Source: Clostridia bacterium (GTDB lineage: Bacteria > Bacillota > Clostridia > Oscillospirales > CAG-272). Taken from it: DNA of 64,000 bases. This document shows positions 21,328 through 63,700 of the stretch, piece by piece. Every line of letters starts with the position of its first letter. The stretch's first letter is position 1. The stretch spans positions 11,952 through 75,951 of the forward strand of contig JAFTST010000051.1 in NCBI GenBank assembly GCA_017467165.1, written 5' to 3'. Below the pieces are notes generated by a model that saw only the letters and a program-made list of their open reading frames with translations, ran no database searches and was not told the DNA's origin. A program made the translations under genes and the position numbers.

Positions 21328-21360
21328 ATTTCAGTAACACTCTATTTGTATATCCAAATA

Positions 21361-23566: not shown

Positions 23567-23579
23567 TAAGTAATTTTCT

Positions 23580-33463: not shown

Positions 33464-33517
33464 TCAAAGCGCGATATTAAAATTCATATAAAAACAAAAT
33501 CCAAAAGGAGAAACAAA

Positions 33518-37096: not shown

Positions 37097-37218
37097 CCGA
37101 TGAAGGGCTGCCGCGCGGCAGAAAAGAGCTTTCGCGCGGGGTGGGGTCACTACAGCCCGAAGAAACAGTCAAAAAAATAAAAAACATATAGGCTCGTATG
37201 AGCCAAAAGGAGACGAAA

Positions 37219-39324: not shown

Positions 39325-39471
39325 GACATATTCGGGAATGGAATAACCCATTTTCAAAAGCCGACGCTTCGATGCGTTGAAAAAACAATTCAAGCCACGG
39401 GCTGTGACGGATTTTTCCCAAGGATTTCGCATCATAGCCCGATGCATAACGTCTGACTGAAAGGTATAAAA

Positions 39472-46984: not shown

Positions 46985-47279
46985 GTTAATCACGGGAATA
47001 CTTAGTGTTGCCATAGTGATAGCGGCGGCAATTCTCGCTATATTCGCTCTTGTGGCTTCCTGCTTCGCAGGAGCTGTTGCGGGAAGCGTGGGTGGCGGTG
47101 GAGCAGGACTTTTCCACACGCTAAAGACCTGCTTTCACACCGTCGACGTCGGCATTAAGAGCAAGGCTATGAGAATTGCAGTATTCGTTCTGCTCGGTCT
47201 TGTCGCTCTTCTTGCCGTAGGGCTCGCGGTGTACGCGATATGCCTGATTATCCCTCTGATAGCTAAGGGGGGCGTATGA
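46977..47279 (+). CDS. Small (100 aa) membrane protein with three predicted hydrophobic helices
   Basis: It overlaps the stop of the upstream gene by 8 nt and has an ATGA overlap with the downstream GTPase gene. Hydrophobic segments are ILSVAIVIAAAILAIFALVASCFAGAVAG and IAVFVLLGLVALLAVGLAVYAICLIIPLI. Confidence 0.65.
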   Translation: MAELITGILSVAIVIAAAILAIFALVASCFAGAVAGSVGGGGAGLFHTLKTCFHTVDVGIKSKAMRIAVFVLLGLVALLAVGLAVYAICLIIPLIAKGGV

Positions 47280-48724
47280 CGGATCCTGCTAAAATAAGCT
47301 ATATGTTCACCCTTGCGCCGATGGAATATTCCGACTCGGTGAAGGAAATATTTGAGGACTATATCAACGTTATCAAGAAGAATTTCGGCAAGCTGGAAAA
47401 CAAGTTCATTGACTTAACAAGGCTTGATTTCTCCGGAAACTTCTTTAACAGTCTGAAGTTCGGAAGCCTTTTCGCCTTGCAGCTTGGCTTTTTCTTCGGC
47501 GAGCTTTTGCTGCACGCGGTTCTTAGCGCGCTGTTTGGCGGTTTATTTATACTTCTGTACGGCGCGGCGGTCTATGGAATGAAGCTGTACGGATACGTGA
47601 CGATGGGTATTCTTCTTTCTATAGAGTACCTTTTCTCATTCTTCAAAAGAATTGCCTTTAGCTGTCCGAACTGTCAGGCGAAGCACAAAATGCCAACTTA
47701 TCTTTGCAAATGCGGCAGAAAACACAAAAAGCTGATGCCCTCGAGCGCCGGACTTCTCAAAAGAGAGTGTGTCTGCGGAGAAAAGCTCGCCTGCTCGCTG
47801 TTTTCGGGAAGGCACAGGCTCTCGGGAAGGTGGCTCTGTCCCGACTGCGACTATGAGATAGGTGGACCCTTGCATACGGATATACCGATTCCCGTTGTCG
47901 CAGGACCCAACGCGGGAAAAACCTGCTTTATCATCTCGGCTATAATGGAGCTCGAGAAGAATTCTGAGAGAAAGCACGACCTTCTTTTCGAGTATCACGA
48001 AAACCCGCAGCTTGGCGACGACTACTACGATAACAAGAGGCAGATAGAGAGGGGCAACGCTCCTCTGAAAACACGCGACAGCAGGCTTCGCTACTATCAG
48101 TTCTATCTTACCCCCAGGGGCAAAAAGATAAGAAATATGGTATCGCTGTGCGACGTCGCGGGAGAGGTATTCGCGCACGGGGACGACGTTATTCAGCCCG
48201 GCTTCAAAAACGCGGCGGCGTATCTTATTATCGTCGACCCGCTGTCAATCCCCGCCCTGAGAGCCGACCTCGACCCTGCCGTTGTGGCAAGGACACGCTT
48301 CAGCACGCGTCCTATGGACGAGGTAGTCAATATACTTATCAAGACCCTTGAGCTTTTCGGTGTCAAGGAGTCACAGCACGCGCATATCGATATAGCGGTA
48401 GTGTTCACCAAGTGCGACACTCCCGGTATCGACGACATCATAGGCAACAGGGCGGTTATGAGGACTATGCAGACCTCGGGTATTGAGTCAAGGCTCGAGG
48501 CGCAGAATGCCGTCTGTCAATCCGCGCTTATGAAATACGGCGAGGCTAACTTTCTCAACGCCATTCGCTCGCAGTTCAGAAGCCTGCAGTTTTTCACCAC
48601 CTCTGCTCTTGGCGAGAGTGGACAGGCATTTAATCCCATTGGCGTTGACGAGCCGATTCTCTGGCTTGTCGACAAGGTGAGCCCGGATATTAATCTGAAG
48701 GCGAAATGGGGAAAGAAAATTTAA
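47276..48724 (+). CDS. Membrane-anchored zinc-ribbon GTPase (paralog 2)
   Basis: The N-terminal hydrophobic region (about residues 60-125) is followed by CPNC..CKCG..CVCG..CPDC. GTPase motifs are G1 GPNAGKT, G3 CDVAGE, G4 FTKCD and G5-like TSALG. The C-terminal tail is INLKAKWGKKI. Confidence 0.85.
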   Translation: MTDPAKISYMFTLAPMEYSDSVKEIFEDYINVIKKNFGKLENKFIDLTRLDFSGNFFNSLKFGSLFALQLGFFFGELLLHAVLSALFGGLFILLYGAAVYGMKLYGYVTMGILLSIEYLFSFFKRIAFSCPNCQAKHKMPTYLCKCGRKHKKLMPSSAGLLKRECVCGEKLACSLFSGRHRLSGRWLCPDCDYEIGGPLHTDIPIPVVAGPNAGKTCFIISAIMELEKNSERKHDLLFEYHENPQLGDDYYDNKRQIERGNAPLKTRDSRLRYYQFYLTPRGKKIRNMVSLCDVAGEVFAHGDDVIQPGFKNAAAYLIIVDPLSIPALRADLDPAVVARTRFSTRPMDEVVNILIKTLELFGVKESQHAHIDIAVVFTKCDTPGIDDIIGNRAVMRTMQTSGIESRLEAQNAVCQSALMKYGEANFLNAIRSQFRSLQFFTTSALGESGQAFNPIGVDEPILWLVDKVSPDINLKAKWGKKI

Positions 48725-48887
48725 GCTCCGCGGTACACAGTCAATCCGTGACCCGTATCGCCCAAGAAAAAAAGACACGGGTGGTGTCATAGACCGATAC
48801 ACCGCCCGTGAATAAAATGAATAAGCGTATTTTTCTGTCCCCGTCGGCGACGCGGATAGGGCAATAAGCTTATCCTATGGAGGAAAA

Positions 48888-49553
48888 ATGGTTTTTTATA
48901 TCAGCTTTGGTATCATTCTTCTGGCTTTTGGAATATTCAACTACGTAGCGTCGATTTTATCCTCGAAGGGAAGACCGATATCGAGCTACGCTATGGCGGC
49001 GGTGCTCAGGTGCTTCGCGGTTGCCATTATGCTCGCCGTGACGGTCTGTCTGTGGTTCGCGACGCCTCGCCTTATCGATTTAGACTGGGATTATGAGGGC
49101 AGGGGGCTGCTTATAGTGGTTTCCTTATTCAACTCCATCATTCTGTGCAGTCTGCCCCTGCCGCTCGTTATACGCAGATTCGGCTCGTCCTTTAACTATA
49201 ACAGAACGAAATTCATGACCGCGTATATAGCGAATATTCTGGCGCTGCTTGCTATCGGATTTGTTGAAACGACGCTTATCTCGCTTGTGACCTACTCCAA
49301 CGCGCTATTTTATCACAGGGATTTCTGGGTCTATGCCTTCTACTTCATTTTCGCAGTCTGCGCGGGCGCGGCGGGATTTTTCTCCGCTTTCTCGGGCGAG
49401 GACGGAATTATCGACAGCTTCACCAGAGATAACTCGTCGATGTGGAATTATATAATGGGCTTCGGAGTATTTCTCCTTGCGGGATTCGCCGGAAACTACG
49501 TTATTATGTTCGTGGTATGGGTTATCCGCGGAATTATCGGTCTTTTCACTTAA
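48888..49553 (+). CDS. Polytopic membrane protein related at its N-terminus to the type A array proteins
   Basis: 221 aa with a GGAGGA RBS. The N-terminal IILLAFGIFNYVASI shares the G-x-x-NYV motif found at the N-termini of the type A proteins. Confidence 0.7.
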   Translation: MVFYISFGIILLAFGIFNYVASILSSKGRPISSYAMAAVLRCFAVAIMLAVTVCLWFATPRLIDLDWDYEGRGLLIVVSLFNSIILCSLPLPLVIRRFGSSFNYNRTKFMTAYIANILALLAIGFVETTLISLVTYSNALFYHRDFWVYAFYFIFAVCAGAAGFFSAFSGEDGIIDSFTRDNSSMWNYIMGFGVFLLAGFAGNYVIMFVVWVIRGIIGLFT

Positions 49554-49639
49554 AGCTCTCAATTATGTCATCAATCAAATAGGTTAAACTCTTCATTAAT
49601 TAAGTAATTAATAAATAAAAAATATAAAGGAGCAACACA

Positions 49640-51058
49640 ATGCAAAAACAACCTGCTCAAAAAAGTTACTTTTTTGACAAGGGCTACAAGGACGTCGGGA
49701 ACATTCTGAAAAAGACCTGGACCACCGCCTTCCGCCCTGTCACCAACGAGTTTTCGAGGGTGGTACAGCTTTTTGCCGACAACGTAGTTGCGGCAATCTT
49801 CACCGTCGTCGTTGACCTCGTCGTATTTTCCATCGTCACCGCGGCGATACTGCTCGGAGTTCTTATCTTCTCGGCAGTCTTCATCGCGGGTATTGCGGCA
49901 GCGGGCGTAGTGGTCTACGTTTTCTACTCGCTTCTGTTTCTGGCTGACTTCGTGTTCTGTCTTATTCAGCATATTTCCTCGCACTGCAGCGTGTGTCAGA
50001 ACAAGTTCCGTCTGCCATATTACAGATGCCCCAACCCCGCCTGCTCAAACGTACATACCGCCCTGCGCCCCAGCGTGTACGGTATTCTGAAAAGAAAGTG
50101 TAACTGCGGCAGAAAGCTGCCCACAACCTTCTTCAACGGCAGACAGAAGCTCGAGGCTATCTGTCCTCACTGTAACAAGAGAGTTGACGGCGGCGGAGAG
50201 CACACCGAGATAATGATTCCCATCGTCGGCGGCTCAAACTCGGGAAAGACCTGCTTCGTCAATATGGCTATCAAGCAGATTGAGGCCTGCGCCTCCCAGA
50301 ACGACCTCGTGTTCGAATACAATCCCACCCTTGACGATAATATGGGTGATATAAGAGCTACTATGGGCAGGGGTATGCTCCCCCCCAAGACCCGTGAGGA
50401 GAGAATGACCTACTACCGCTTCTACCTCACTCCCAAGGGAAAGAAGGTCAAGACCCTTATTTCTCTTTGTGACGTTGCGGGAGAGGCGTTTGACAACAAG
50501 GATAAGATTGGCGAGCAGATAGGCTACAAGAACGCTAACGCCTTCGTTATGGTGGTTGACCCGCTTTCCATTCCTGCCTTCTATATGGATCAGCAGAAGA
50601 AGATGAACGTCAATAACTACGCCAGAAGCACCAAGGCGCTTGACACCGTTCTCAACAACCTTATAGTAACGCTCGAGAGCCTTAAGTGCATCGACGCCAA
50701 GACTATGATAAAGACCGACGTCGTGGTGGTGTTCACCAAGTGCGATATTCCCGACCTGGTTAAGCGTATGGGTCCGCAGGCTGTACAGCAGTATATGTTT
50801 GACAACAATCTGCCCTCGAAGTTCGTCGCGCAGAACAAGCTGTGTGAGCAATTCCTGCTCGAGTACGGAGAGGCGAACTTCTTAAACTCTCTGCGCTCCA
50901 AGTTCCGCAGTATTCAGTTCTTCCCGACCTCTGCTCTCGGTCACGTACAGAACGGTATGAAATACGCTCCTCAGGGTGTTGAGGATCCTATTCTCTGGAT
51001 TATCGACAAGATTTCCGCGGGAATCAACCTCAAGAACAAGTGGGGCAAGAAAATTTAA
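49640..51058 (+). CDS. Membrane-anchored zinc-ribbon GTPase (paralog 3)
   Basis: It has the same architecture as 47276..48724. Cys motifs are CSVC..CPNPAC..CNCG..CPHC. GTPase motifs are G1 GGSNSGKT, G3 CDVAGE, G4 FTKCD and G5-like TSALG. The tail is INLKNKWGKKI. Confidence 0.85.
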   Translation: MQKQPAQKSYFFDKGYKDVGNILKKTWTTAFRPVTNEFSRVVQLFADNVVAAIFTVVVDLVVFSIVTAAILLGVLIFSAVFIAGIAAAGVVVYVFYSLLFLADFVFCLIQHISSHCSVCQNKFRLPYYRCPNPACSNVHTALRPSVYGILKRKCNCGRKLPTTFFNGRQKLEAICPHCNKRVDGGGEHTEIMIPIVGGSNSGKTCFVNMAIKQIEACASQNDLVFEYNPTLDDNMGDIRATMGRGMLPPKTREERMTYYRFYLTPKGKKVKTLISLCDVAGEAFDNKDKIGEQIGYKNANAFVMVVDPLSIPAFYMDQQKKMNVNNYARSTKALDTVLNNLIVTLESLKCIDAKTMIKTDVVVVFTKCDIPDLVKRMGPQAVQQYMFDNNLPSKFVAQNKLCEQFLLEYGEANFLNSLRSKFRSIQFFPTSALGHVQNGMKYAPQGVEDPILWIIDKISAGINLKNKWGKKI

Positions 51059-51074
51059 CACGGGGGTTATATAA

Positions 51075-52040
51075 ATGCTTTTGATTGGCATACTGCTCGG
51101 CGTATTTATAATTACGGCGGGCGTTATCAACTACATATTCGTTGTCAGAAATCCGAACAGCTCGGGAGGAATATTCAACTTCCTTGGCTTCGCGGTTTCG
51201 GTTATGGTGACTACGCTGGCGCTTATTGTGATTAACACTCTGGGCGTATTTATACCTCAGTTTGTTTTCACCAATATTCACTGGGGCTGGCTGCTTGGCA
51301 TCAGCATCGTTTTGCTGATAACTATCTTCATTTTTGTGATAGCAGCCTTTAGTAGCTATTCTCGCTCTGATGCTGAGGAAACTATAGTCGGCATTACGGG
51401 ATTTATGCTTATTCCTCTGCTCGTTGTGCTGATTATGGCTCCTGTGAGAGCCGATATACATACCTACGAGCTCTCGGAAGCGAGGGACTTCAACCTTCTT
51501 AACAATCTTCCCACCGACTCGAAATATATCTATCACTTTGAGGTGACCGACGATATAGACTTCGAGGGTGAGAAAACGAGAATTGTCTACGGCAGGGAAA
51601 AGTTCACCTATTATATTGACGGAAACGGTCACACCCTCTCGGGCTTCGTCTGCGAGGATGATATCAAGGAGGACTGCTCGCTCTTCACGGCGGGTTATAT
51701 CGTCCTGGCTAATAGCGACGTCTATTACTCTAAAATTTCAAACATTACCCTCGACGGCTTCGTCCTGACCGTTGCTCCCAACGGATACGACAAGGAAAAC
51801 CGCGTAGGACTCAATCTCAATTACTCAATCTTCGATAAGGATATCGAGCTTGAGGGCGTTACTCTTAAGGCAGAGGTTATCATAGCGGACGAGGTTATCT
51901 ACAACCGCTCGCTGACCCCCTCTACCATAGCCTCGGTTTTGCCCGAGAGCGGTGAGGACGATAGGGGAAATAAATTCAACGTTACCGTCACAGGAGAGCT
52001 CTACAAGCCCGAGCCCGAGCCCGAGACGGACGCAGAATAA
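51075..52040 (+). CDS. Array protein type A, copy 1 (four N-terminal TM helices plus a roughly 190-aa C-terminal domain)
   Basis: Contains the NYI/NYV N-terminal motif, the HWGW motif (NIHWGWLLG), DIDFEGEKTRIVYGREKFTYYIDGNGHTLSGF, and LTVAPNGYDKE. Confidence 0.8.
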   Translation: MLLIGILLGVFIITAGVINYIFVVRNPNSSGGIFNFLGFAVSVMVTTLALIVINTLGVFIPQFVFTNIHWGWLLGISIVLLITIFIFVIAAFSSYSRSDAEETIVGITGFMLIPLLVVLIMAPVRADIHTYELSEARDFNLLNNLPTDSKYIYHFEVTDDIDFEGEKTRIVYGREKFTYYIDGNGHTLSGFVCEDDIKEDCSLFTAGYIVLANSDVYYSKISNITLDGFVLTVAPNGYDKENRVGLNLNYSIFDKDIELEGVTLKAEVIIADEVIYNRSLTPSTIASVLPESGEDDRGNKFNVTVTGELYKPEPEPETDAE

Positions 52041-52049
52041 GGAGGAAAA

Positions 52050-53057
52050 ATGATATTACCAATCGCTCTGGTCGTCATATTTGCCCTGACGGTCGGTGTC
52101 TACAACTACGTTACTATCAGCCGCGGCTCGTCGGGAAGGGGCTTTGCACTGGAAAGTCTTTATCTTGCCACCTTCGTTTCCTGCGGAATTATGCTGGTAG
52201 TCGGACTTTTGGCTATGAGAGCCCCGAGCTTTATTTTCACTTATATCCACTGGGGCTGGTTTCTCGCGTGCAGTATCGTCGTATTTTTGCTCTGCATATT
52301 TATGATGATACTTTTGATAAATGACAGCGCGGAGGCTTATTGGTCTGCTCTTGTTACCTTTATAGGCATTTTGGTTATAGTTTTCGGCATTGTAGCTCCC
52401 GTGAGAGCTGACAAGCACACCTATGAAATCAGCAAGCCCCAGCACTTCAACCTTCTCACCAACCTCCCCGGAGATAAGAAGAACGTCTACTACTTCGAGC
52501 TTGGCGATGATATCGACTTCACGGGCAAGAAGGTCAAGGACAGCTATGGCAGCAAGAGAGTGTGCTACCGCATCGACGGAAACGGACACTCTATTAAGGG
52601 TATATCCTATACCGCGGAGCTGAAGGAGGACGGATGTCTTTTCATTGGCGGAGAGGCGCAGGATGGCACAGGCAGCTATTATAGCTCTCGCATATCCAAC
52701 GTTGTCTTTGAGGATATGGTTCTCATTCTGACTCCCAACGCCTACGACGAGGACAGACACGAGGGTCTGTCGGTTAACTTCAATATGTTTTCCGAAATCG
52801 GCACAAGCCGTCACGTAAGCCTGGATAACGTTACCGTCAAGGCTAACGTCAGGGTTACCGAGGCTGTGGAAAATTATCGCTCTATAAATCCCTCCGAGGT
52901 TGGCGCTATCAATCTTGGAGAAGTAGACAGCGCGTACGTTGTCAACGAGAGTGACTTCGCTATAACCATCAATGATACCGAGGTTGCCTCTAAGGGTAAC
53001 TACACGCTTAATTATGAAATTCCCGAGGAAAATAACGGCGAGGAGGTAGAAGGATAA
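52050..53057 (+). CDS. Array protein type A, copy 2
   Basis: AAGGAGG RBS. Contains YIHWGWFLA, DIDFTGKKVKDSYGSKRVCYRIDGNGHSIKGI and LILTPNAYDED. Its stop overlaps the start of the type B gene at 53057. Confidence 0.8.
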   Translation: MILPIALVVIFALTVGVYNYVTISRGSSGRGFALESLYLATFVSCGIMLVVGLLAMRAPSFIFTYIHWGWFLACSIVVFLLCIFMMILLINDSAEAYWSALVTFIGILVIVFGIVAPVRADKHTYEISKPQHFNLLTNLPGDKKNVYYFELGDDIDFTGKKVKDSYGSKRVCYRIDGNGHSIKGISYTAELKEDGCLFIGGEAQDGTGSYYSSRISNVVFEDMVLILTPNAYDEDRHEGLSVNFNMFSEIGTSRHVSLDNVTVKANVRVTEAVENYRSINPSEVGAINLGEVDSAYVVNESDFAITINDTEVASKGNYTLNYEIPEENNGEEVEG

Positions 53058-54247
53058 TGGTAGCTATAACCTATCTTGTTATCGCGGCGATAGTCGGAAT
53101 TATCGCGGCTATTGGCTTTATCGGTGTATTTAACTTCTTCGGCACCTTCTTTATCACCTTTATCGCCGCCTTCTGTATCGGTATGTTCATAGAAACCGTA
53201 GACCAGGGCTGTAACACCGGTCTTGACTCGGCTAACGAGGTGTTCGAGGTGCTGGGTATAGATTACGGCGGACTGTGGGTGCTTTTAGGATTACCCGGAC
53301 TCGTCTATATAGTTATGTTCCTTTTCTGCGGCGTATTTATGGCTCCCTTCTGGTTCTTGGTCGAGGATTGCAGGACATATAAGACGGTCACCAGAACGGT
53401 GCAGTGGGTTGCCGTTGGTATTCTCTCAATTTCGACGGTGGTCTGCGCCCTTATGTTCCTCGCTCCCACCTTCCTTTACTCGCTTATGCACTGGGGCTGG
53501 CTGTTCGGTATTCTTATTGCAGCGTCTGTGCTCGTTATAGTTGCTCTGCCGATGGTTGATAACAACTACTACTCCTTCGGCGGCCCGCTATACAACATTC
53601 TTCTTATCGTGGCTATCGCTATTATTCCCGTGACTGTCACGGGTCTTATCGTGTCCTCGAATCACACTCACTTTATCGGAAGCGCGTTTGAGATGAACGC
53701 CTTCGGAAACGCTCCTCAGGGCAAGAATACCGTTTTCGTGCTTGAAAACGACATTGATTTTGAGGGCGAGGAGGTTCGCTGGTTCGGAGAGTACAAGAAC
53801 TTCAAGGGTATGTTCAACGGTCAGGGACACACTCTCTCCAACTTCAAGGTTACAGACAGGGTGAGAAATCTCAAGACCGAGGGCGATTACAAGGGCACCG
53901 GCCTTGTTATCAGCAACAACGGTATATTCAGAGATCTGAAGATTGACGGCGCTCTTATCTCCGTGGAATTGCCGAAGGAATACTACGGCACTATCAATGT
54001 TGGTATGTTTGCCGCGGAAAACCTGAACGGAAAATACCTCAACTGCGTGACCACAGGCTCGGGCATAAGAATAGAAAAAAATGAAACCTACGACAGCCAA
54101 AAGGTATATAGGAGCTTCAGAGTAGGAAATTGGAACAACGGCGTTGAGGGTATAAGCGCTAGTAACAACGGCGGAGAGCATCGCTTCCCTGAGGAAATGC
54201 GAAATGATACGACTAAGCGCTGGGAATATTACCCCGAAACCGAATAA
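53057..54247 (+). CDS. Array protein type B, copy 1 (longer polytopic TM region plus C-terminal domain)
   Basis: Contains LMHWGWLFG, MNAFGNAPQGKNTVFVLENDIDFEGEEVRWFGEYKNFKGMFNGQGHTLSNF and GLVISNNGIFRDLKI. Confidence 0.8.
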   Translation: MVAITYLVIAAIVGIIAAIGFIGVFNFFGTFFITFIAAFCIGMFIETVDQGCNTGLDSANEVFEVLGIDYGGLWVLLGLPGLVYIVMFLFCGVFMAPFWFLVEDCRTYKTVTRTVQWVAVGILSISTVVCALMFLAPTFLYSLMHWGWLFGILIAASVLVIVALPMVDNNYYSFGGPLYNILLIVAIAIIPVTVTGLIVSSNHTHFIGSAFEMNAFGNAPQGKNTVFVLENDIDFEGEEVRWFGEYKNFKGMFNGQGHTLSNFKVTDRVRNLKTEGDYKGTGLVISNNGIFRDLKIDGALISVELPKEYYGTINVGMFAAENLNGKYLNCVTTGSGIRIEKNETYDSQKVYRSFRVGNWNNGVEGISASNNGGEHRFPEEMRNDTTKRWEYYPETE

Positions 54248-54259
54248 CGGAGAATTTTT

Positions 54260-55231
54260 ATGTACTTATTTTTGATTATTGCGGGCGTTTTCGTGCTTAT
54301 CGCGGGTGGAACTAACTACGTTCTCGTTCTGAAAAATCGCTCTGCCAGATCAATGGTCAGCTCGAAGGGCTTGCTCGTCGCATTCTTTGTGGCGAGCCTG
54401 TTGACGTTTCTTTATAACGTCCTTGTCAACGTTGCTCCTAAGTATGCCTTTTTGTACGTGCATTACGGCTGGTTTTACGGAATAAGCATCGCTGTGTTTA
54501 TTCTCTCCTTGATACTCGGCGTTTTGCAGCTGTTTATCTACAACAAGCATAGCTTTGAGAGAAAGACTAACCTCGGCGTATCGCAGATACTCGTCGGTAT
54601 ATGCGTGCTTATACTAATGATCGGAGGTGGCAAGGCGGCGGCAAGCGGCGCCTACGAGCTATCGGAGCCCCGCGACTTCAAGCTTTTAGAAAATATTCCC
54701 TCGGAGGACGACAGCTATTCGTATTTTTATCTTTCCTCGGACATTGACTTCGAGGGGCAGACGGTGACAGAGCCCTTCGGCAGAGAGGGAGCGAGATACA
54801 CCATCAACGGCAACGGACACACCATCTCCAATCTCAACGCAGAGCTTGTCCTGACGGAAAAGGTGAGCGCACTGTTTTTAAACTCGTATAGCGTTGCGTC
54901 CGATGGATATACGGGTGGAATATCTATATCAAGGCAAGTAAACTCTATATATGATCTGAAATTTGACGGCTGCTCCTTCACCCTGACGCCTAACGGATAT
55001 GACGAGGACAGCTTTTCGTCCTATAAGTGCGACTTTGCTCTGATGAAAAAGAGCGATGCGGAGGCTATCGCGGGCAGCGAAATAACTATGACTAATACTA
55101 CCGTGACGGTTAAGCCTGCCATAGAAAATATCCGCTCCATTGATAAAACCTCGATTGGCGAGATATTCGCGGAGCTTGTGGGAAGCGACCTTTTGGGACT
55201 TAATATAGTCAGAGAGGAGGAGAGCGAATGA
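54260..55231 (+). CDS. Array protein type A, copy 3
   Basis: Contains YVHYGWFYG, DIDFEGQTVTEPFGREGARYTINGNGHTISNL and FTLTPNGYDED. It has an ATGA overlap with the next type B gene. Confidence 0.8.
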   Translation: MYLFLIIAGVFVLIAGGTNYVLVLKNRSARSMVSSKGLLVAFFVASLLTFLYNVLVNVAPKYAFLYVHYGWFYGISIAVFILSLILGVLQLFIYNKHSFERKTNLGVSQILVGICVLILMIGGGKAAASGAYELSEPRDFKLLENIPSEDDSYSYFYLSSDIDFEGQTVTEPFGREGARYTINGNGHTISNLNAELVLTEKVSALFLNSYSVASDGYTGGISISRQVNSIYDLKFDGCSFTLTPNGYDEDSFSSYKCDFALMKKSDAEAIAGSEITMTNTTVTVKPAIENIRSIDKTSIGEIFAELVGSDLLGLNIVREEESE

Positions 55232-56415
55232 TTATTTTTCTGTTTTCCCTCTTTCTCGGATTTATGATGGGATTTGCGCTTGGTAGCGGCGGAGCCTTTA
55301 TTCTCGTTTCTGTTGGCTCATTCTGGCTTCTGACCTTCGTTAATACGGTGGCGAACCGTACGAATCTCGGCTTTCGCGGCGCTGTAAATGGATTTTTAGC
55401 GCTTGCTCAGCACCCTTTTCTCTGGTTTATTCAGCTTTTGCCCCTGCAGGTTTTCGTCTGGTGCGCTCTTTTCGGCGGCATCGGACTTGCTCCCCTGTGG
55501 TATATGATAGACCACGGAAAGGCATTCTTCCGCGCGCTGGGAAGGTTCTTTCGCTTTATATGGAAGCTCTTTATTATGGCGATACCGTTTGTCCTCGCGC
55601 CTGTTATCCTTCTTGGCTTGGCGGCGGGTGTTATCTTGATAATTAAGCCCGTATTTGTATACTCTTATTTACATTGGGGTGTTCTTATCGCTATATCGGC
55701 GGGTGTTTTGCTGCTCAGTGTATTCTTCTGTTCGCTTGCGATAAGAAAGCACTATGTTACTCGCGTGTACAACAGGATTGCAAGGGTCTTGGGTATTATC
55801 GTTCTTCCGCTGGTTATTTTGGGTGTTATGCTTTCTCTTGGAAAGACCTTTGAGATTTCCACAGCCAGAGAGATGAACGCCTTTGGAAACGCGCCCTGTA
55901 CCAAGAATACGCTCTTCATCATAACCGAGGATATTGACTTCGGGGGAGAGGAAGTAGGCTGGTATTCTGCGTATGAGGATTTCAAGGGTGCTATCGACGG
56001 CAGAGGACACACGCTCTCGAATTTTGAGGCGGAGGTTCCGGTTAAGAAAACCAAGAGCGACACCAGCGTCGGACTTGTCAGGAAAAACCACGGACTTATC
56101 AAGAACCTGAGCTTCAGGGACTCAAAAATCTACGTAACCTCGGACGGATATTTCTATCTTAATGCAGTCGGCGTCATCGTTGGCGAAAACTACGGAAAGG
56201 TTGCAAGTTGCTCGGTCGAGGGCGTTGAACTCTATATAGCGCAGGGCATCGAGGTGCGGGACGATGATTATTCGCTCACCGTTGGTTGGGACAACGAGTT
56301 GCGGGTTGGGGTTATCGACGTTTTGGGAAAAATTCCCGAGTATCCCGAGCCTGATGAGTATGACGGTTATTATTACAGAAAGGGCATTCCCTACAACGCG
56401 GTTTTTGAGGAATAA
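55228..56415 (+). CDS. Array protein type B, copy 2
   Basis: Contains YLHWGVLIA, MNAFGNAPCTKNTLFIITEDIDFGGEEVGWYSAYEDFKGAIDGRGHTLSNF and GLVRKNHGLIKNLSF. Confidence 0.8.
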   Translation: MIIFLFSLFLGFMMGFALGSGGAFILVSVGSFWLLTFVNTVANRTNLGFRGAVNGFLALAQHPFLWFIQLLPLQVFVWCALFGGIGLAPLWYMIDHGKAFFRALGRFFRFIWKLFIMAIPFVLAPVILLGLAAGVILIIKPVFVYSYLHWGVLIAISAGVLLLSVFFCSLAIRKHYVTRVYNRIARVLGIIVLPLVILGVMLSLGKTFEISTAREMNAFGNAPCTKNTLFIITEDIDFGGEEVGWYSAYEDFKGAIDGRGHTLSNFEAEVPVKKTKSDTSVGLVRKNHGLIKNLSFRDSKIYVTSDGYFYLNAVGVIVGENYGKVASCSVEGVELYIAQGIEVRDDDYSLTVGWDNELRVGVIDVLGKIPEYPEPDEYDGYYYRKGIPYNAVFEE

Positions 56416-56424
56416 GCAGCAATT

Positions 56425-56796
56425 ATGTATTTCACTTATCTTTTCTGGATTGCCGTGGCGCTTGCCTGCAGCACGGTTAACTACGTCTATGCTGTGAAAA
56501 ACAAGAAAAGCATCGAACCGAAAACGGTTTTAGGGATTTCCCGTCGCTATGGCTTTTTCACTGCGTCCGCTGTGATTTTTGTCTATACCGTTATTCTTCT
56601 TGCGGATTCGAGCCTCGCGTATGTCCTTGGAAGACCCGCTACCGTGTTTTTCTACTCGGTTATAGTCGCCATAGACGCCACGGTAACGCTGGCTATGGAT
56701 TTGCGCGCCTTTATAAGAAACAGGACGCTTCGTGTCAGCGACGTTATCTATATCGCGGCTTCCTTTTTCTCGCTTATTGTTCTATCAACCTTTTGA
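56425..56796 (+). CDS. TM-only type A module (123 aa), either truncated or a stand-alone version
   Basis: It aligns with the N-terminal TM region of 57470..58396 (STVNYVYAVKNKK versus GTVNYVYAVKRKK). It stops exactly where the C-terminal domain would begin. The RBS is weak. Confidence 0.55.
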   Translation: MYFTYLFWIAVALACSTVNYVYAVKNKKSIEPKTVLGISRRYGFFTASAVIFVYTVILLADSSLAYVLGRPATVFFYSVIVAIDATVTLAMDLRAFIRNRTLRVSDVIYIAASFFSLIVLSTF

Positions 56797-56931
56797 GATT
56801 TGACGTACCGTTTATTAGATATGGGGCGAGCGCGGGGTTAAATATGCCCTAAGATTGACACGCCCCACCCCCTCTAAGCTCCGCGGATCTTTTTATCGAA
56901 GTGCTTTTTATCAAAAAACGGAGAGTTTTAT
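56797..56931 (+). repeat. Conserved intergenic element, copy 1 (GGGGCG ... TTGACACGCCCCACC ... TAAGCTC ... AAAAAACGGAG)
   Basis: It shares the 15-nt core TTGACACGCCCCACC and most flanking positions with 57328..57469. Confidence 0.7.
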
Positions 56932-57327
56932 ATGTATTTAATTATTATTATATTGGCTGTCGCGGTGATTACCAGCGGTGTGTTTAACTACGTACATGCG
57001 CTGAAAAACAATAACGTTCTTTTGCCGAAAATCATTTTTGCTCTTTCCAGAAGAGCTGCCTTCAGGTCGGCGGCATCCGTGCTTCTTGCGTACGTTATCC
57101 TGTATTTCATATCTCCCGACACAGCGCTCGTGCTGGCTCGTCCCGCTACGGCGCTCATTCCTGCGGTTATCGTCGTTATAGACGCCGCGATAACGCTGTT
57201 CTGGACTGTGTTTGTCTTTATCAAATATAAGGTGTCGCTTCGTTCAAGCCTGATTATCAGATACGTCCGCGATTTTATTTATATTGCGGCTTCGGTTTTC
57301 TGTCTGATTGCTATTTCGAGCTTTTAA
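56932..57327 (+). CDS. TM-only type A module (131 aa), second copy
   Basis: GGAGAG RBS. It begins MYLIIIILAVAVITSGVFNYVHALKNNN and ends IYIAASVFCLIAISSF, parallel to 56425..56796. Confidence 0.6.
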   Translation: MYLIIIILAVAVITSGVFNYVHALKNNNVLLPKIIFALSRRAAFRSAASVLLAYVILYFISPDTALVLARPATALIPAVIVVIDAAITLFWTVFVFIKYKVSLRSSLIIRYVRDFIYIAASVFCLIAISSF

Positions 57328-57469
57328 GTTTTTTTAAGACTTGAATTTTTTCTGACGGGGCGTGCAGAGGGGCTTGATTTCCCAAGGGTTGACACGCCCC
57401 ACCTCTTTTAAGCTCGGCTTGGGTATTTCTGTAAATTGACGCCCGAGTCGAAAAAACGGAGTATTTTCT
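57328..57469 (+). repeat. Conserved intergenic element, copy 2
   Basis: Contains the inverted repeat GGGGCGTG ... CACGCCCC, the core TTGACACGCCCCACC, TAAGCTC, and the leader AAAAAACGGAGTATTTTCT before the ATG. Confidence 0.7.
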
Positions 57470-58396
57470 ATGTACTTACTTATTATTCTTGGCGTTGCCG
57501 TGGCGCTCAGCTGCGGCACTGTAAATTACGTTTATGCTGTGAAAAGAAAAAAAGGCACCTCGTCCGCGGGAGCAGCTGTGGTGACCTATCACGCGGCAAT
57601 GATGTCGGCGATGGCGGTGGTGCTTATTTTCAATGCTCTTCTCGTGAGCTCGCCCGAGTTCGCTCTCAGGCTTGCAGACTGGAAAACCGCTCTTATTATC
57701 AGTATCATCGTTATGGCTGACAGGGGAGCGGTGTGCGCCGTTCTGGGCTATAAATATGCGAACAAGCATCTTGTGTCAAGCTACGCTCACACGATCTCCT
57801 TCACTATGGCGGCAATGGCGCTGGTATTTCTTTTATACAGCTCATTTACTATTGATAAGCACGTGTTCGTTGTGGACGAGGCGAGCGACCTTGAAATAAT
57901 CGAGAGGCTGCCCGCGGGGGACAGGGTATATACCTTCGTTCTGGAGAGTGACCTGGATTTTTCGGATGAAGAATTACGTTTCGAAGGCTACGGCAGCGAG
58001 AAGGTGTCGTACGTCATTGACGGTAAGGGTTACACCGTCAGTGGAATAAGATATTACGCAGAGCTTACAGGCAACTTCACTCTTTTCCGCTCAAGCGGCT
58101 CTGACGAGTGCGCGGTGAGAAATCTGACGCTTGCTGACTGCACCTTCGCTATCGCTCCGAACAGTTATGACAATTCCACTCACAAGGGTCTTGGCTGCGG
58201 CTTCTATTTTTCAAGCCTTGATAAGTCGGCGCTTGAAAACGTGACCGTCAGGGAGGTTGAGATAATAGTTAAGCCGGCGGTCGAGAATATCAGAGCGAAT
58301 AACCTATCGTACGTGTACGACGAGCTTGTTGATACCGAGTATCACGAGGGTGACGTTTCTTTAAGCATCAAGGTTACAAGGGAGGAACAGCCGTGA
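57470..58396 (+). CDS. Array protein type A, copy 4
   Basis: Contains DLDFSDEELRFEGYGSEKVSYVIDGKGYTVSGI, FAIAPNSYDNS and KPAVENIRANN. It overlaps the GTG start of the next type B gene. Confidence 0.8.
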   Translation: MYLLIILGVAVALSCGTVNYVYAVKRKKGTSSAGAAVVTYHAAMMSAMAVVLIFNALLVSSPEFALRLADWKTALIISIIVMADRGAVCAVLGYKYANKHLVSSYAHTISFTMAAMALVFLLYSSFTIDKHVFVVDEASDLEIIERLPAGDRVYTFVLESDLDFSDEELRFEGYGSEKVSYVIDGKGYTVSGIRYYAELTGNFTLFRSSGSDECAVRNLTLADCTFAIAPNSYDNSTHKGLGCGFYFSSLDKSALENVTVREVEIIVKPAVENIRANNLSYVYDELVDTEYHEGDVSLSIKVTREEQP

Positions 58397-59628
58397 TTTA
58401 TTTAATAACCTCTGTCGCCCTCGCGATAGTGTTCGCCGTCGCCTTTGGCGGAGTGATGGGGCTCGTTTTTGCCTTTATCGTGGGCTTCTGGTGCGCGTTT
58501 TCCCTGATGGCGTCTGTTGACACCCTTGTTACAGGAAACAACAGAGGAGTCGATTGGGCGAAAAACACACTCCTCCTCGGACTTCGAAATCTTTATAAGG
58601 GCTGGTATTTCCTGCTTGTTCCGCTTTCCGCGGTCGTGCTTGTTGTGTGCGGATTTCTTCTTGCGCCCCTGTGGTTTCTTTTGCAATACTTATATAATCT
58701 CGGTAGCAGGGTTGATAACATTGCAGCACAGGCGGGGGCGAAAATTATCTCGTTTTTTGACACGGTATGGTACGTCCCGTATATTCTTGGCATTTGTGTG
58801 CTTGCCGGACTTTCCATATTCACCTTCGCGGCGCCCGCGCAGATATATAGACATATGCATTGGGGCTGGTGGATTGCTATAATTTCACTTCTTTGTATTC
58901 TGCTTGTGGTCGTCGTGGGAATAAGGCGCAGCGACCGCTATATCAAGAGCGGCAGAGCTACCTTCGCTTTGTGCCTCCTTTCTCTTGCCGCTATACCCGT
59001 GGTTGCGCTCGCGATACACTCCTCGACTAACGAGATATATTATATCAGCGACCGGGGAGATATGCGTATTTTCGGTAACGCGCCACAGAATCAGGATACC
59101 GTATTCGTGCTTGAGAACGATATTGACTTCGGTGGAAAGCGCGTGCGCTGGTTTGGAAAGTATACCGAATTCAAGGGCGTTTTCGACGGCAAGGGTTATA
59201 CCCTCTCGAATTTTAAGGTAAAGAAGAACGCGGTCTCAACGAACAGCAGCTATACCGATGGCACGGAGGGACTATCTTTGCCGCATGCGCTTGGATTGGT
59301 CGTGAGAAATCACGGCGTACTTCGCAACCTCAATATCTCTGATGCTAAAATTACTATGGGCTATAACTCACTTATGCCAAACGTGTGCTACGGCACCCTC
59401 GCGGGTATCAATGCCTCGGGCGGCAGCGTCGTTGATTGCTCGGTTGTGGATTGCATCGCAACGTACGTCAAGCCGAAAAGGGATACTATCAGAGCTTTTA
59501 TGACCGTCGGCAAGAACGTGGGAGAGGTGAGAGTTACGGAGAGCTATTCTCCCGACTACAAGCCTGATGCGTCCTTTGTTCAGGAGGGATGGGTGCTCGT
59601 TCCTCAGATTTCAGGAACTACGGAGTAG
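58393..59628 (+). CDS. Array protein type B, copy 3
   Basis: GTG start with a GGGAGGA RBS. Contains HMHWGWWIA, IFGNAPQNQDTVFVLENDIDFGGKRVRWFGKYTEFKGVFDGKGYTLSNF and GLVVRNHGVLRNLNI. Confidence 0.8.
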   Translation: MIYLITSVALAIVFAVAFGGVMGLVFAFIVGFWCAFSLMASVDTLVTGNNRGVDWAKNTLLLGLRNLYKGWYFLLVPLSAVVLVVCGFLLAPLWFLLQYLYNLGSRVDNIAAQAGAKIISFFDTVWYVPYILGICVLAGLSIFTFAAPAQIYRHMHWGWWIAIISLLCILLVVVVGIRRSDRYIKSGRATFALCLLSLAAIPVVALAIHSSTNEIYYISDRGDMRIFGNAPQNQDTVFVLENDIDFGGKRVRWFGKYTEFKGVFDGKGYTLSNFKVKKNAVSTNSSYTDGTEGLSLPHALGLVVRNHGVLRNLNISDAKITMGYNSLMPNVCYGTLAGINASGGSVVDCSVVDCIATYVKPKRDTIRAFMTVGKNVGEVRVTESYSPDYKPDASFVQEGWVLVPQISGTTE

Positions 59629-59630
59629 GT

Positions 59631-60662
59631 ATGGTTAACGAGTACTATAAATCAAGGCTCCCCGCGCATCAGAGAAAGGTGTATGAGGATGCGGTAAGGG
59701 TTTTCTCGGAGGGAGGATGTCGAGTTCATTTCACCACAACGCACGAGCAGGCGTTCGACACTTATACCGCGGTGTATAACGACCACCCCGAGCTGTTTTA
59801 TATGTCCAACGGCGCCAAGGCAGAGGTGAGAAGCATTCTCGGGGGTATAAGGTGCGGTACGCTTATATCCGAGCATATATATACGCCGCATGAGATTATC
59901 CGCTTCAAGACGGGTATGAAAAGAGAGCTCTTCAAGCTGAGGGAGCTGACACGGGGCTGTACTTCTCAGCTCGAGGTCGAGAAGATAGTCTGCGATTATA
60001 TTATCGAGAACGTCACGTATTCTGTCAACCACAGGTTTCATCAGAACGCAGCCTCGGTGCTGGTCAATTTCATCGGTCAGTGCAGCGGTATATCCAAGGC
60101 GGTCAAGTATCTTTTTGACAATCTCGGTATTGAGTGCATCTACGTCACGGGTGAGGGCGGAGACCCGACGGGAGCTGAGCCCTGGGGACCTCACGCCTGG
60201 AATATAGTCAAGATTGACGGTGTGTATTATCACCTTGACGTCACCTTCATGCTCGGCTGTAACCCCCTCAAGAAGAAGCCCTACTATCGCGGCTACCTCA
60301 ACTGGTCGGACGCAGATATGGCGGACAGCCACGTCTGGAAAAGAGGGGATTTCCCCGCTTGTACAAGCAGTATGAAGGGCGACGAGGTAGAGGACCTGAT
60401 GACTATCAAGCGCGAGGACGTCGGCGATACGGTTATCAGCTCGTACGCGGAGTTCAGAGTCAGACTGACAGAGGCGCTTGAAAAAAGAGCGCCCTCGCTG
60501 TGCTTCACCTCGGAGATTGCAGAGCCTAACCAGAAAAGGCTGATGCAGAGGCTGATGGCGGATACCAAGCTCGTGGCGGAGAAGCTCGGCGTTGGTATGG
60601 GTGTGAGCCTCACCTGCCAGAATAACAGGGTGAAGCTGGAATTTACCTGGAGTGACGAATAA
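59631..60662 (+). CDS. Transglutaminase-like (papain-fold Cys-His-Asp) domain protein
   Basis: I chose the start at MVNEYYK, 3 nt after the stop of the preceding gene, with a GGAG RBS. The catalytic-core pattern is GQCSGISKAVKYLFDNLGIECIYVTG...GPHAWNIVKIDGVYYHLDVTF. No signal peptide or TM helix is present. Confidence 0.75.
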   Translation: MVNEYYKSRLPAHQRKVYEDAVRVFSEGGCRVHFTTTHEQAFDTYTAVYNDHPELFYMSNGAKAEVRSILGGIRCGTLISEHIYTPHEIIRFKTGMKRELFKLRELTRGCTSQLEVEKIVCDYIIENVTYSVNHRFHQNAASVLVNFIGQCSGISKAVKYLFDNLGIECIYVTGEGGDPTGAEPWGPHAWNIVKIDGVYYHLDVTFMLGCNPLKKKPYYRGYLNWSDADMADSHVWKRGDFPACTSSMKGDEVEDLMTIKREDVGDTVISSYAEFRVRLTEALEKRAPSLCFTSEIAEPNQKRLMQRLMADTKLVAEKLGVGMGVSLTCQNNRVKLEFTWSDE

Positions 60663-60685
60663 CCTCCGAAAGAGAGGAATGAAAA

Positions 60686-60712
60686 AAAGGAGAGGCAAAT
60701 TGCCTCTCCTTT
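60686..60712. terminator. Bidirectional intrinsic terminator between the cluster and the convergent ileS
   Basis: AAAGGAGAGGCA aat TGCCTCTCCTTT is a perfect hairpin flanked by an A-tract and a T-containing tract. Confidence 0.8.
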
Positions 60713-60731
60713 CGCTATATATGCGGTTATA

Positions 60732-63700
60732 TTAAACTCTCTCAACCGAGATTTTGACCTTCTCGCCGTTGATATTCCATTCCTTCTCGTTTTCGAGAAC
60801 GGTGTCAAGGAGAACCTCGTCGGCGAGCGTCTGCTCGCATATCTCGTCCTTGTTTCTTTCGACTATTCCGTCGATGACGCTGTTGCCCGAAAATGCGACA
60901 CGGATGCGGTCCATTACCTCAAAGCCCGAGTCCTTTCTCATCGTCTGAATCTTGGAGATAATCTCGCGCACGTTGCCTTCCTCGATAAGCTCGGGGGTGA
61001 GGCGCTTGTCGATAACCACGGTAACTCCCTTGTCGGAGAGCGACTCGAAGCCCTCCTTCTTGGTCATCTCGATAAGCAGGTCGTCGCGGGTGAGCTCTAT
61101 TTTGACTCCGCCAATATCAAGGGTGAGAAGTCCCGTCGCATCTATCTCGTCCATAGCGGTGTTGCCGTCAAGGGTGGAAAGGGCGTTTCTGATGCCGCCG
61201 AGATACTTACCGTACTTGGGACCCACGGTACGAAGCTGGGGCTTGAAGCTGTAGGTGGTGAATTCGCGCACGTTGTCGGTGAAGACCACCTCCTTGACGT
61301 TAAGCTCCTCGCGGATGATGGAAACGTAGCTCTCGTCCTGCGCCTTGTCTGCTCTGACGTACATCTTCGCTATGGGCTGACGGTTCTTGATAGCCGCGGC
61401 GTTTCTTGCCGCTCTGCCGAGAACGACGACGTCGACTACCTTCTTCATATTTTCCTCAAGGTCCTTGTCAACGAGCGACATATCCGCCTCGGGGAAGGAG
61501 CAAAGGTGCACCGAGATGGGCGCGCTCTTGTCGACCGAGCATACGAGATTTCTGTATATCTCCTCGGTCATGAAGGGAATCATAGGCGCGGATATCTTCG
61601 CGATGGTGACAAGAGAGGTGTAGAGGGTCATATATGCGTTGACCTTGTCGGTGGGCATATCCTTCACCCAGAAGCGCTCGCGACAGCGGCGCACGTACCA
61701 GTTGGATAGCTCGTCGACAAGATTTTCGAGTACTCTCGTTGCCTCGGTAATCCTATAAGCGTCGAGAAGCTCGTCAACCGACCTGACAGCAGAGTTCAGC
61801 TTGGAGAGAATCCATCTGTCCATTACCGACAGGCTGTCCTTGTCGAGAGTGTATTCTGTCGGGTTGAAGCCGTCGATATTGGCGTAGAGCACGTAGAACG
61901 CGTAGGTGTTCCAGAGCGTTCCCATGAACTTTCTCTGTCCCTCGACAACGGCGTCGCCGAAGAAGCGGTTGGGAAGCCAGGGAGCAGAGTTGGAGTAGAA
62001 GTACCAGCGGATAGCGTCAGCACCGTAGGTGGAGAGCGCCTCGAAGGGATCAATCGCGTTGCCCTTCGATTTGGACATCTTCTGTCCCTCCTTATCGAGC
62101 ACGTGGCCGAGAACGAGAACGTTCTTGTAGGGCGCGCAGTCGAAGATAAGGGTGGATATAGCCATCAGCGAGTAGAACCAGCCGCGCGTCTGGTCGACGC
62201 CCTCACTGATGAAATCTGCGGGGAACTGGCTGTGGAATAGCTCCTTGTTTTCAAAGGGGTAGTGCCACTGAGCGAAGGGCATCGAGCCAGAGTCAAACCA
62301 GCAGTCGATAACCTCGCTGACGCGCCTCATCTCGCCCTGACACTCGGGACAGCGGAGAGTGACCTCGTCTATGAAGGGACGGTGAAGCTCGATATTCTCG
62401 GGGCAGTTGTCCGACATTGAGCGGAGCTCCTCGATAGAGCCAACTGCGTGGCGGTGACCGCAGGAGCACTCCCAGATGTTGAGGGGAGTTCCCCAATATC
62501 TGTTTCTCGAGAGTCCCCAGTCCTGTACGTTTTCAAGCCAGTCGCCAAAGCGGCCCTTGCCTATATTTTCGGGAATCCAATTAACCGTGTTGTTGTTTCT
62601 GATAAGATTTTCGCGCACCTCGGTCATTCTGATAAACCAGGTGTCACGAGCGTAGTAGATAAGGGGCGTGTTGCATCTCCAGCAGTGCGGATACTCGTGC
62701 TCGAACTTGGGAGCGGAGAACAGCTTGCCTGCCTTGTCGAGGTCGGCTATGATGAGCGGGTCAGCGTCCTTGACGAAGATTCCCGCGTAGTCGGTAGCCT
62801 CGGTTAACTCACCCTTTCCGTCGACGAACTGCACGAAGGGCAGACCGTATTTCTTTCCGACCCTCGAGTCGTCCTCACCGAAGGCGGGAGCGATGTGTAC
62901 TATACCCGTACCGTCGGACATAGTGACGTAGCTGTCGCAGACGACGAAGTGAGCCTTCGCCTTCTGTCTTTCCGCTTCCTTGCCCGCGCACTCGAAAAGA
63001 GGCTCATACTCGCGGTACTCGAGCTCCTTGCCCTTCATTTCGGAAAGAATTTCATAGGCAGACTCGCCCTCCTTAGCCAATGGGGAGAGAACGGTGTCGA
63101 GAAGCTCCTTAGCCATATAGTAGACCCTGCCGTCGCAGCAAGCTACCTTGCAGTAGGTGTCCTCGGGGTTAACGCAGAGGGCGACGTTGGAGGGAAGTGT
63201 CCAGGGGGTAGTCGTCCAGGCGAGGAAATAAGCGTCCTCGTCCTTGCACCTGAAGCGCGCTACGGCAGAGCGCTCCTTGACGGTCTTGTAGCCCTGCGCT
63301 ACCTCGTGGCTGGAGAGGGGTGTGCCGCAGCGGGGGCAGTAGGGAACAATCTTGAAGCCTTTGTAGAGAAGGCCCTTGTCCCAGATTTTCTTCAGCGCCC
63401 ACCACTCGGACTCGATGAAATCGTTGGTGTAGGTGACGTAGGGGTGCTCCATATCAGCCCAGAAGCCGACGGTGCCCGAGAAGTCCTCCCACATTTCCTT
63501 GTATTTCCATACCGATTCCTTACAGTGTGCGATGAAGGGCTCGAGGCCGTACGCCTCTATCTGCTCCTTGCCGTCGATGCCGAGCTTTTTCTCGACCTCA
63601 AGCTCAACGGGCAGACCGTGTGTGTCCCAGCCCGCCTTTCTGAGAACCCTCTTTCCCTTCATGGTCTTGTAACGGGGAATCATATCCTTGATAACTCTGG

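Follow-up and report, generated by a model that had tools for sequence, protein, structure and literature searches.

We analyzed a window of 64,000 nucleotides (nt) from a Clostridia bacterium (GenBank assembly GCA_017467165.1, contig JAFTST010000051.1, positions 11,952 to 75,951 of the forward strand), and within it the segment 56425–57469, which carries two short open reading frames (ORFs), m1 and m2. The segment consists of two head-to-tail units, 56425–56931 and 56932–57469, each made up of a short ORF and a non-coding tail, and it lies inside an array of membrane-protein genes with the order A1 A2 B1 A3 B2 m1 m2 A4 B3 (51075–59628; Table 1). A-type proteins begin with four membrane helices and end in a beta-rich domain of about 180 amino acids; in B-type proteins the membrane domain is longer and is combined with a related outer domain. 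m1 and m2 each encode all four of the A-type membrane helices and stop at the border between helix 4 and the ectodomain.

The units are a tandem duplication of ORF plus spacer. ATG codons are found at 56425, 56932 and 57470, at intervals of 507 and 538 nt, as a first-pass annotation of this DNA had noted. An 89-nt repeat of 5' coding sequence (D1) occurs three times, 507 and 538 nt apart, the later copies being 65% and 73% identical to copy 1, and three more repeat pairs (D2–D4) of 74–82% identity are shared by the two units. The similar N-terminal peptides read as that annotation had quoted them, and the ORF ends it had placed at the border of the transmembrane (TM) domain and the ectodomain, LIVLSTF for m1 and LIAISSF for m2, do fall there, each after four hydrophobic helices. 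The claim that the spacers are homologous to each other was also confirmed: they are 58% identical when aligned, far above shuffles, with matches per length of 0.549 compared to 0.324 ± 0.07 (maximum 0.444) in 200 shuffles. The proposed leader common to all three starts was confirmed in part. The pattern AAAAAACGGAG-N8-ATG precedes m2 and A4, with a close version at A3 (54260), but the leader of m1 is different; CGGAG followed by 7–8 nt and then ATG is common to m2, A4 and A3.

Structural models agree with the assignment of m1 and m2 to the A-type family. AlphaFold places helices in m2 at residues 2–25, 32–60, 62–68, 71–99 and 105–130 (pLDDT 78.4, pTM 0.69), corresponding to those of the A4 membrane domain at 2–25, 32–60, 62–68, 71–97 and 105–130 (pLDDT 83.3); in A4 the first beta strand then begins at residue 132. 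A4 is the closest full-length relative of both short proteins. Within the TM domain, protein identity is 38% between m1 and m2, 28–32% between either of them and A4, and 34–37% between either and A4-alt, a second allele of A4 found in other strains. Cluster representatives of m1 and m2 match positions 1–124 of the A-type profile (E 3e-31 and 1.5e-30). Both retain N19-Y20, the invariant N-Y that ends helix 1 in the A-type family, as well as a helix-3 Asp common to A4 and A4-alt. The H-W-G-W motif before helix 3 was not found in m1 (GRPAT) or m2 (ARPAT); because A4 (ADWKT) and A4-alt (SSFKT) are likewise without it, its absence is a mark of the subfamily and not a loss peculiar to m1 and m2. The C-terminal beta-rich ectodomain with its DIDF...G.GHT motif is not present in m1 or m2, the ORFs ending after helix 4. 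A search of the ESM Atlas with m2 matched only unnamed small proteins, and a complex prediction for m2 with the membrane domain of B3 scored 0.00 and gave no verdict, counting neither for nor against.

We examined the divergence between m1 and m2 for constraint on the short ORFs. Their 38% identity in protein is accompanied by 61% identity in DNA, with a non-synonymous divergence (dN) of 0.49 and a synonymous divergence (dS) of 0.78 (ratio 0.63; Fisher p = 0.027 for synonymous versus non-synonymous). This is the only unsaturated pair among 15 paralog pairs, dS for the others being at least 1.6 or not computable. Identity at codon positions 1, 2 and 3 is 0.55, 0.70 and 0.58, respectively, and position 2 is better conserved than positions 1 and 3 (Fisher p = 0.013). 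Only in-frame indels, of 1 and 7 codons, occur in the ORF alignment, whereas the spacer alignment has gaps of 3 and 4 nt. Both frames remained open in 0.7% and 1.1% of neutral simulations (3000 each) that assumed uniform substitutions and a proxy ancestor. In public protein clusters of 15 (m1) and 21 (m2) members, the frame is open in all 15 listed variants of m1 and all 15 listed variants of m2, and each of the latter is 131 amino acids long. In pairwise comparisons, the m1 variants differ in protein by 5.3% on average and the m2 variants by 3.1%, mostly through V/I, L/F and K/R exchanges. Judged by these comparisons, m1 and m2 look like genes that are still kept.

Several points weigh against this view and against the interpretation that we build on it. 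A dN/dS of 0.63 is high, and codon positions 1 and 3 are conserved no better than the spacer, so constraint is weak; the neutral simulations carry the simplifications named above. The strain clusters group proteins at 90% identity, a cutoff at which badly broken copies would drop out of the listing, and the finding that all copies are open is therefore biased. The stop of m1 varies (5 of its 15 variants end in STF and 10 in STFSEV), in 4 of the 15 the start is called further downstream, and with a protein diversity 1.7 times that of m2, m1 looks the looser of the two. Among the best 150 of the 548 proteins recovered by a profile search (see below), TM-only forms comprised the m1 cluster, the m2 cluster and one singleton of 170 amino acids (P0105). 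The sole hint of expression is a 323-nt contig from a gut metatranscriptome that covers 57110–57431, from inside m2 through the core of spacer 2, and this RNA library may hold DNA. In addition, gene linkage across strains, as used below, was inferred from equal contig sizes and not read from DNA, and the perfect 15-nt run shared by the spacers is somewhat longer than in column shuffles, so some constraint upon the core is possible.

The high dN/dS, the conservation of position 1 at no better than that of position 3, the varying ends of m1 and the single TM-only relative outside the species among the matches listed could all be accommodated if both ORFs were dead remnants of truncated A-type genes, persisting between selected genes and open by luck; a recent break in A4-alt at the helix-4/ectodomain border (see below) indicates that truncations of this kind occur as damage. 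Decaying remnants had been one of the three readings offered by the first-pass annotation. This reading fits the origin of m1 and m2, a truncation after helix 4, but fits their present state poorly. Frames open at a dS of 0.78, an outcome reached in only about 1% of neutral simulations, a preferential conservation of codon position 2, ORF indels that are all in frame, and the retention of N19-Y20 and the helix-3 Asp argue for coding-type constraint, and m2 has in addition an intact Shine-Dalgarno (SD) leader and an invariant length in the listed variants. We regard dead remnants as unlikely.

The similarity of the two spacers is unevenly distributed. Identical columns make up 43 of 63 in a central block, 19 of 60 in the flanks and 16 of 19 in the leader; central block and flanks differ with a Fisher p of 6.5e-5, for a block that was chosen after looking, and the identity of the block (68%) equals that at four-fold synonymous sites in m1 and m2 (17 of 25). 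The 15-nt core TTGACACGCCCCACC and the partially complementary arm preceding it are present in both copies as first reported. Allowing up to two mismatches, the core has two matches in the window compared to 0.02 expected, two matches being obtained in none of 100 shuffles, and a third copy was not found at up to one mismatch in the 1.38-Mb, 73.5%-complete assembly. Against column shuffles, the perfect 15-nt run has a P of 0.029 when the whole unit is considered and of 0.0046 for the spacer alone.

The possible hairpins have loops of 28–32 nt. For the central 58 nt, fold z-scores on the + strand are -0.96 and -1.72 for copies 1 and 2, with -2.2 for the minus strand of copy 2; for the whole spacers they are +0.22 and -2.08. 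Beside the stem, copy 1 has A and copy 2 has T, opposite an A, such that the stem is longer in copy 2 and mismatched in copy 1; because this sole stem-side difference is a mismatch in copy 1, there is no compensation. Rfam 15, searched with 56300–57600, returned only rli61 at 18.2 bits (gathering threshold 50, E 2.7), outside the core. A terminator scan detected no intrinsic terminator-like site in either spacer, and copy 1 is followed by ACCCCCTCTAAG without a U-tract. As had been proposed, the TTGACA of the core is not followed by a suitably spaced -10 box: no site listed by a sigma-70 scan starts at 56855 or 57389, and the shared TAAGCT lies 14 nt downstream of TTGACA, the criterion for a -10 box being 16–18 nt. 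The only promoter-like site touching the spacers begins at 56927, in the last bases of spacer 1 (9 of 12 matches). The exact pattern of core plus TAAGCT had no match in the metagenome contigs of the Joint Genome Institute (JGI).

We also considered other derivations of the spacers. Inspected by eye, both copies give GRA.G...DTPH in frame 0, but coding relics of an ectodomain were rejected, the A-type profile scoring below zero in all reported frames and the differences between the spacers being spread 5, 8 and 7 over the codon positions. A derivation from a B gene or another array gene was not supported by local alignments against eight targets (z from -1.11 to 2.17), the best of which was a short leader match at the B1/A3 junction. 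A small conserved spacer ORF was rejected as well: ORFs of 21–28 amino acids exist, none of them in a shared frame with a start and an SD site in both copies.

It is possible to see in the core and hairpin a functional intercistronic cis element (a site at which the RNA is processed or stabilized, a weak attenuator, or a stretch of DNA bound by a protein) that sets the output of the downstream genes. The perfect 15-nt run, the excess of identity in the central block over the flanks, the GGGGCG/CGCCCC arms kept in both copies, the minus-strand fold of copy 2, and the RNA-library contig that extends from m2 through the core to 57431 are consistent with such an element. We nevertheless consider it improbable, more so than dead remnants, given that the central block is no more conserved than four-fold sites, that the + strand folds are often equaled by shuffles (Table 1), that the stem-side difference is uncompensated, that the Rfam match is at chance level, and that neither a terminator, a listed promoter site on the core TTGACA, a U-tract in copy 1, a third copy in the genome nor an exact JGI match was found. 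The description of the spacers as a conserved structured element was thus not upheld, and the earlier suggestion that stand-alone TM subunits are combined with a cis-regulatory RNA divides in two: its protein half has the best support of all the readings, whereas the RNA half is not supported by the folds, by Rfam or by the comparison with four-fold sites. A function for the hairpin or core is not supported, and none would be needed to account for the spacer similarity; the only clearly functional part of the spacer would be the predicted ribosome-binding leader of the next gene.

To gain information on the locus in other strains, we compared contigs and protein clusters. One strain's 15.9-kb contig is collinear with 47000–61000 of the window (14 kb), with 212 differences and 15 gaps, and among the indels listed only one falls inside 56425–57469, at 56912, where the A-run of spacer 1 is longer by one A. 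Three DNA runs revealed no joints within 56425–57469, contigs being able to hide rare forms. In run X11, cover is low over 56807–57740. A4 and B3 each have a second allele, represented by the P0003 cluster (12 members, 48% identical to A4) and the P0072 cluster (5 members, 42% identical to B3). Variants of m2 and A4-alt are listed on contigs of equal size (280409, 127376, 4671 and 1758), as is B-alt for the first three of these sizes, and variants of m2 and the window-type A4 are listed on equal-sized contigs of 80005 and 8632. All listed m2 variants differ by at most 6.9% (at least 93% identical) though the next gene pair is swapped; the near-constancy of m2 next to a replaced A4-B3 pair indicates that the locus borders a swapped cassette. 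A4 and A4-alt are 92% identical over residues 1–25 and 16–56% identical thereafter, a step at about 25 codons that places the boundary of the replaced segment inside A4 and not in the spacer. The A/B array thus apparently varies between strains by whole gene pairs and not by ectodomains. In one strain A4-alt is split into P0190 (133 amino acids, TM-only) and P0187 (149 amino acids, outer domain), both on 1854-nt contigs; this split is a recent instance of the kind of break from which the ancestor of m1 and m2 must have arisen.

The exchange next door raises the question of whether the modules and spacers are themselves scars or sites of recombination by which strains exchange A-B cassettes. 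The presence of m2 variants on equal-sized contigs with both A4 alleles (four alt, two window-type) and the divergence of both members of the exchanged pair are compatible with this, as is the calling of m1 from a later start in a strain without a listed A3 or B2 cluster member, and the three similar 5' repeats could be cross-over sites. Against it, the identity break lies inside A4, the three DNA runs have no joint in the segment, collinearity extends over 14 kb in one contig, a Pfam scan of 45 window ORFs (a subset of the ORFs) detected no recombinase domain, and no extra ectodomain copies were found elsewhere in the 73.5%-complete assembly. The earlier suggestion of recombination footprints that swap ectodomains is therefore borne out only insofar as turnover of the A4-B3 cassette adjoins the segment; gene pairs rather than ectodomains are swapped, and nothing links the spacers to the exchange. 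We consider recombination scars very unlikely.

In the array as a whole, the stops of A genes overlap the starts of the next B genes by 1, 4 and 4 nt, suggesting A-B pairs. By the positive-inside rule, the KNKK loop after helix 1 places the C-terminal domain outside the cell. Upstream of the array are genes for HSP70, DO-GTPase2 and GAP1-N2 proteins (Table 1); by Pfam match the window thus contains both a type 2 DO-GTPase and an N2-type GAP1 protein, the combination by which GAP1-N2-type systems are recognized. HSP70 was found three times, and FNIII, GrpE and DnaJ had no match at E <= 0.001 in the window proteins scanned. PADLOC gave no meaningful match.

Table 1. Positions of the short ORFs, their spacers and the surrounding genes in the window.
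Feature	Position	Strand	Description
HSP70 genes	33518–35125, 35498–37096, 37198–39324 (vWA fusion)	+	Pfam
Zinc-ribbon protein	39472–42597	+	1041 amino acids; Pfam, only zinc-ribbon match
DO-GTPase2 gene	42686–43837	+	PF19993, E 2.2e-7
GAP1-N2 gene	43853–46984	+	PF20013, E 4.4e-15
DO-GTPase2 gene	47276–48724	+	PF19993, E 1.2e-8
TM protein	48888–49553	+	221 amino acids; upstream system
DO-GTPase2 gene with TM segments and zinc ribbon	49640–51058	+	PF19993, E 2.6e-12
A1	51075–52040	+	array gene
A2	52050–53057	+	array gene
B1	53057–54247	+	array gene
A3	54260–55231	+	full-length A-type
B2	55228–56415	+	array gene
m1	56425–56796	+	123-amino-acid ORF, four TM helices only, stop TGA; ectodomain-less A-type paralog (A4 subfamily)
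Spacer 1	56797–56931	+	135 nt, non-coding, homologous to spacer 2
Possible hairpin 1	56823–56866	+	arms GGGGCG 56823–56828 and CGCCCC 56861–56866; -18.4 kcal/mol, z -0.96; 30/200 shuffles as good
15-nt core TTGACACGCCCCACC, copy 1	56855–56869	+	exact match
m2 leader AAAAAACGGAG	56913–56931	+	GGAG 56920–56923, 8 nt 5' of ATG
m2	56932–57327	+	131-amino-acid ORF, four TM helices only, stop TAA
Spacer 2	57328–57469	+	142 nt, non-coding
Possible hairpin 2	57357–57400	+	arms GGGGCGTG 57357–57364 and CACGCCCC 57393–57400; -22.4 kcal/mol, z -1.72; 12/200 shuffles as good
15-nt core TTGACACGCCCCACC, copy 2	57389–57403	+	exact match
A4 leader AAAAAACGGAG	57451–57469	+	GGAG 57458–57461, 8 nt 5' of ATG
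A4	57470–58396	+	308 amino acids, 4 TM + beta-rich ectodomain; strain alleles: window type and alt (48% identity)
B3	58393–59628	+	B-type partner; 4-nt overlap with A4 stop; alt strains carry 42% identical B gene (P0072 cluster)

Additional variation was observed in the array and the genes around it. A contig of run X7 replaces 89 nt at 48788–48878, in the gap between the first of the array-proximal DO-GTPase2 genes and the gene for the 221-amino-acid TM protein, with 864 other letters. Three DNA runs have an extra AGCCCG at window position 52005, in the Pro-Glu repeat tail of A1, an in-frame length variation, and run X4 has a compensated frameshift at 56302–56307 near the 3' end of B2, where one nucleotide is lost and another is gained 5 nt away. 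The array is followed by a transglutaminase-like gene at 59589–60662, which as listed overlaps B3 by 40 nt; a start at its second Met (59631) would fall 3 nt past the B3 stop. ORFs antisense to the HSP70 genes, 33464–35308 (-) and 37150–39447 (-), match PF10712 (NAD-GH), a family that we take to be the known antisense-of-HSP70 artefact, the real genes being on the + strand. In another organism, the 654-amino-acid protein P0017 joins a protein-kinase-like N-terminal half to the last two helices and outer domain of the A-type, a fusion which hints that the outer domain may signal to cytoplasmic modules.

A-type genes are rare in other genomes. None was found in 24 genomes of the same genus and 16 of the same order, nor in 212 other genomes of the same genus, and in 33 of 398 other genomes of the class the matches were only partial and lay within larger ORFs. 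Searching 1.84 billion representatives with the profile recovered 548 proteins at E <= 0.001 and 23 at E <= 1e-30. The sole locus from genome contigs, in a second Clostridia metagenome-assembled genome (L011), represents the minimal form, one TM/zinc-ribbon (ZnR)-DO-GTPase2 gene followed by a single A and a single B gene; nine weak loci with the ectodomain motif (L012–L020) were found on metagenome contigs.

Elsewhere in the window, dnaA, dnaN, recF, gyrB and gyrA at 5700–14472 place it at the chromosome origin. The region 18000–24000 around parA/parB is low in GC (0.34–0.42 versus about 0.50). Alanyl-tRNA synthetase is found in two ORFs, 164–919 and 998–2857 (Pfam profile positions 2–226 and 257–551), a split for which a frameshift, a stop or an error in assembly may be responsible.

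Taking these data together, we favor, with a probability of about 0.58, the interpretation that m1 and m2 represent a truncated A-type gene duplicated in tandem along with its tail and kept as small membrane subunits under weak selection, the likeness of the spacers reflecting inheritance and the leader. An A-type gene of the A4 subfamily would have been cut right after the fourth membrane helix, leaving a four-TM ORF and about 140 nt of non-coding DNA. A tandem duplication of this unit would have followed, for which the simplest route would be unequal recombination between neighboring A-type genes at their similar 5' ends, which code for helix 1. Both short ORFs would since have been held open by weak purifying selection, and the spacers would be inherited non-coding DNA. 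m2 carries what looks to be a good SD site, and both ORFs are probably translated into small four-helix membrane proteins. Such proteins would be expected to join, or compete within, the A/B membrane assemblies serving the DO-GTPase/GAP1-N2/HSP70 system, where subunits without a sensor could act as filler, decoy or damper.

A more elaborate version can be imagined in which m1-spacer-m2-spacer is the conserved anchor of a cassette-exchange locus. The sensor-less four-TM subunits would modulate a GTPase/HSP70 immune complex that senses the outside of the cell, the core and hairpin would delimit the cassettes or determine how many sensor-less subunits are made relative to sensor-bearing ones, and strains would swap A-B sensor pairs beside the block. 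We give this version less credence than any other reading considered here.

Truncated paralogs that act as decoys or regulators in immune arrays offer one comparison for the interpretation we favor, that of retained membrane subunits. Like them, m1 and m2 keep the assembly part, lose the sensing part and lie in a variable locus; in contrast, a decoy role for m1 and m2 is putative and their constraint is weak. A tandem duplicate of a truncated paralog is in itself ordinary gene-family turnover, here in an unusual and poorly studied system. For the spacers, known parallels are the intercistronic GC-rich hairpins that stabilize or process operon mRNA and the attC sites of integrons. An imperfect inverted repeat between cistrons or at a cassette border is common to both and to our spacers, but the element described here is not repeated in the genome, folds no better than shuffles and has a loop of 28–32 nt, and no integrase was found in the ORFs scanned. 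The DIDF...G.GHT motif carried by the A/B ectodomains resembles GLUG/pectate-lyase-like beta-helix domains (PF07581, PF20585), with weak Pfam matches below curated thresholds (Glug E 0.064, Pectate_lyase_5 E 0.03). The best match of A4 to a solved fold is likewise the beta-helix protein 3n6z (E 3.2e-3, probability 0.97), a weak match with a TM-score of 0.24. A domain of this type is absent altogether from m1 and m2.

The closest comparison for the locus as a whole is with the GAP1-N2-type DO-GTPase conflict systems, in which HSP70 is a theme and for which decoy copies are mentioned (Kaur, Burroughs, Iyer, Aravind, eLife 2020, PMC7159879). By predicted domains, the genes upstream of the array match this type of system, a predicted bacterial defence system whose function is itself a published prediction from comparative genomics. 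Three DO-GTPase2 proteins (one with N-terminal TM segments and a zinc ribbon), GAP1-N2 and three HSP70 proteins are shared, as are membrane components and components that vary between close relatives. The window differs in the missing matches to FNIII, GrpE and DnaJ among the proteins scanned, and in its A/B pairs and TM-only copies, which are not named in the parts of PMC7159879 that we drew upon. The locus provides a compact natural series of full-length A-B pairs, two allelic A-B pairs and two copies consisting of the membrane domain only, and this series would allow one to ask if the membrane domain can assemble with its partners by itself, and if it is the ectodomains that do the sensing and vary.

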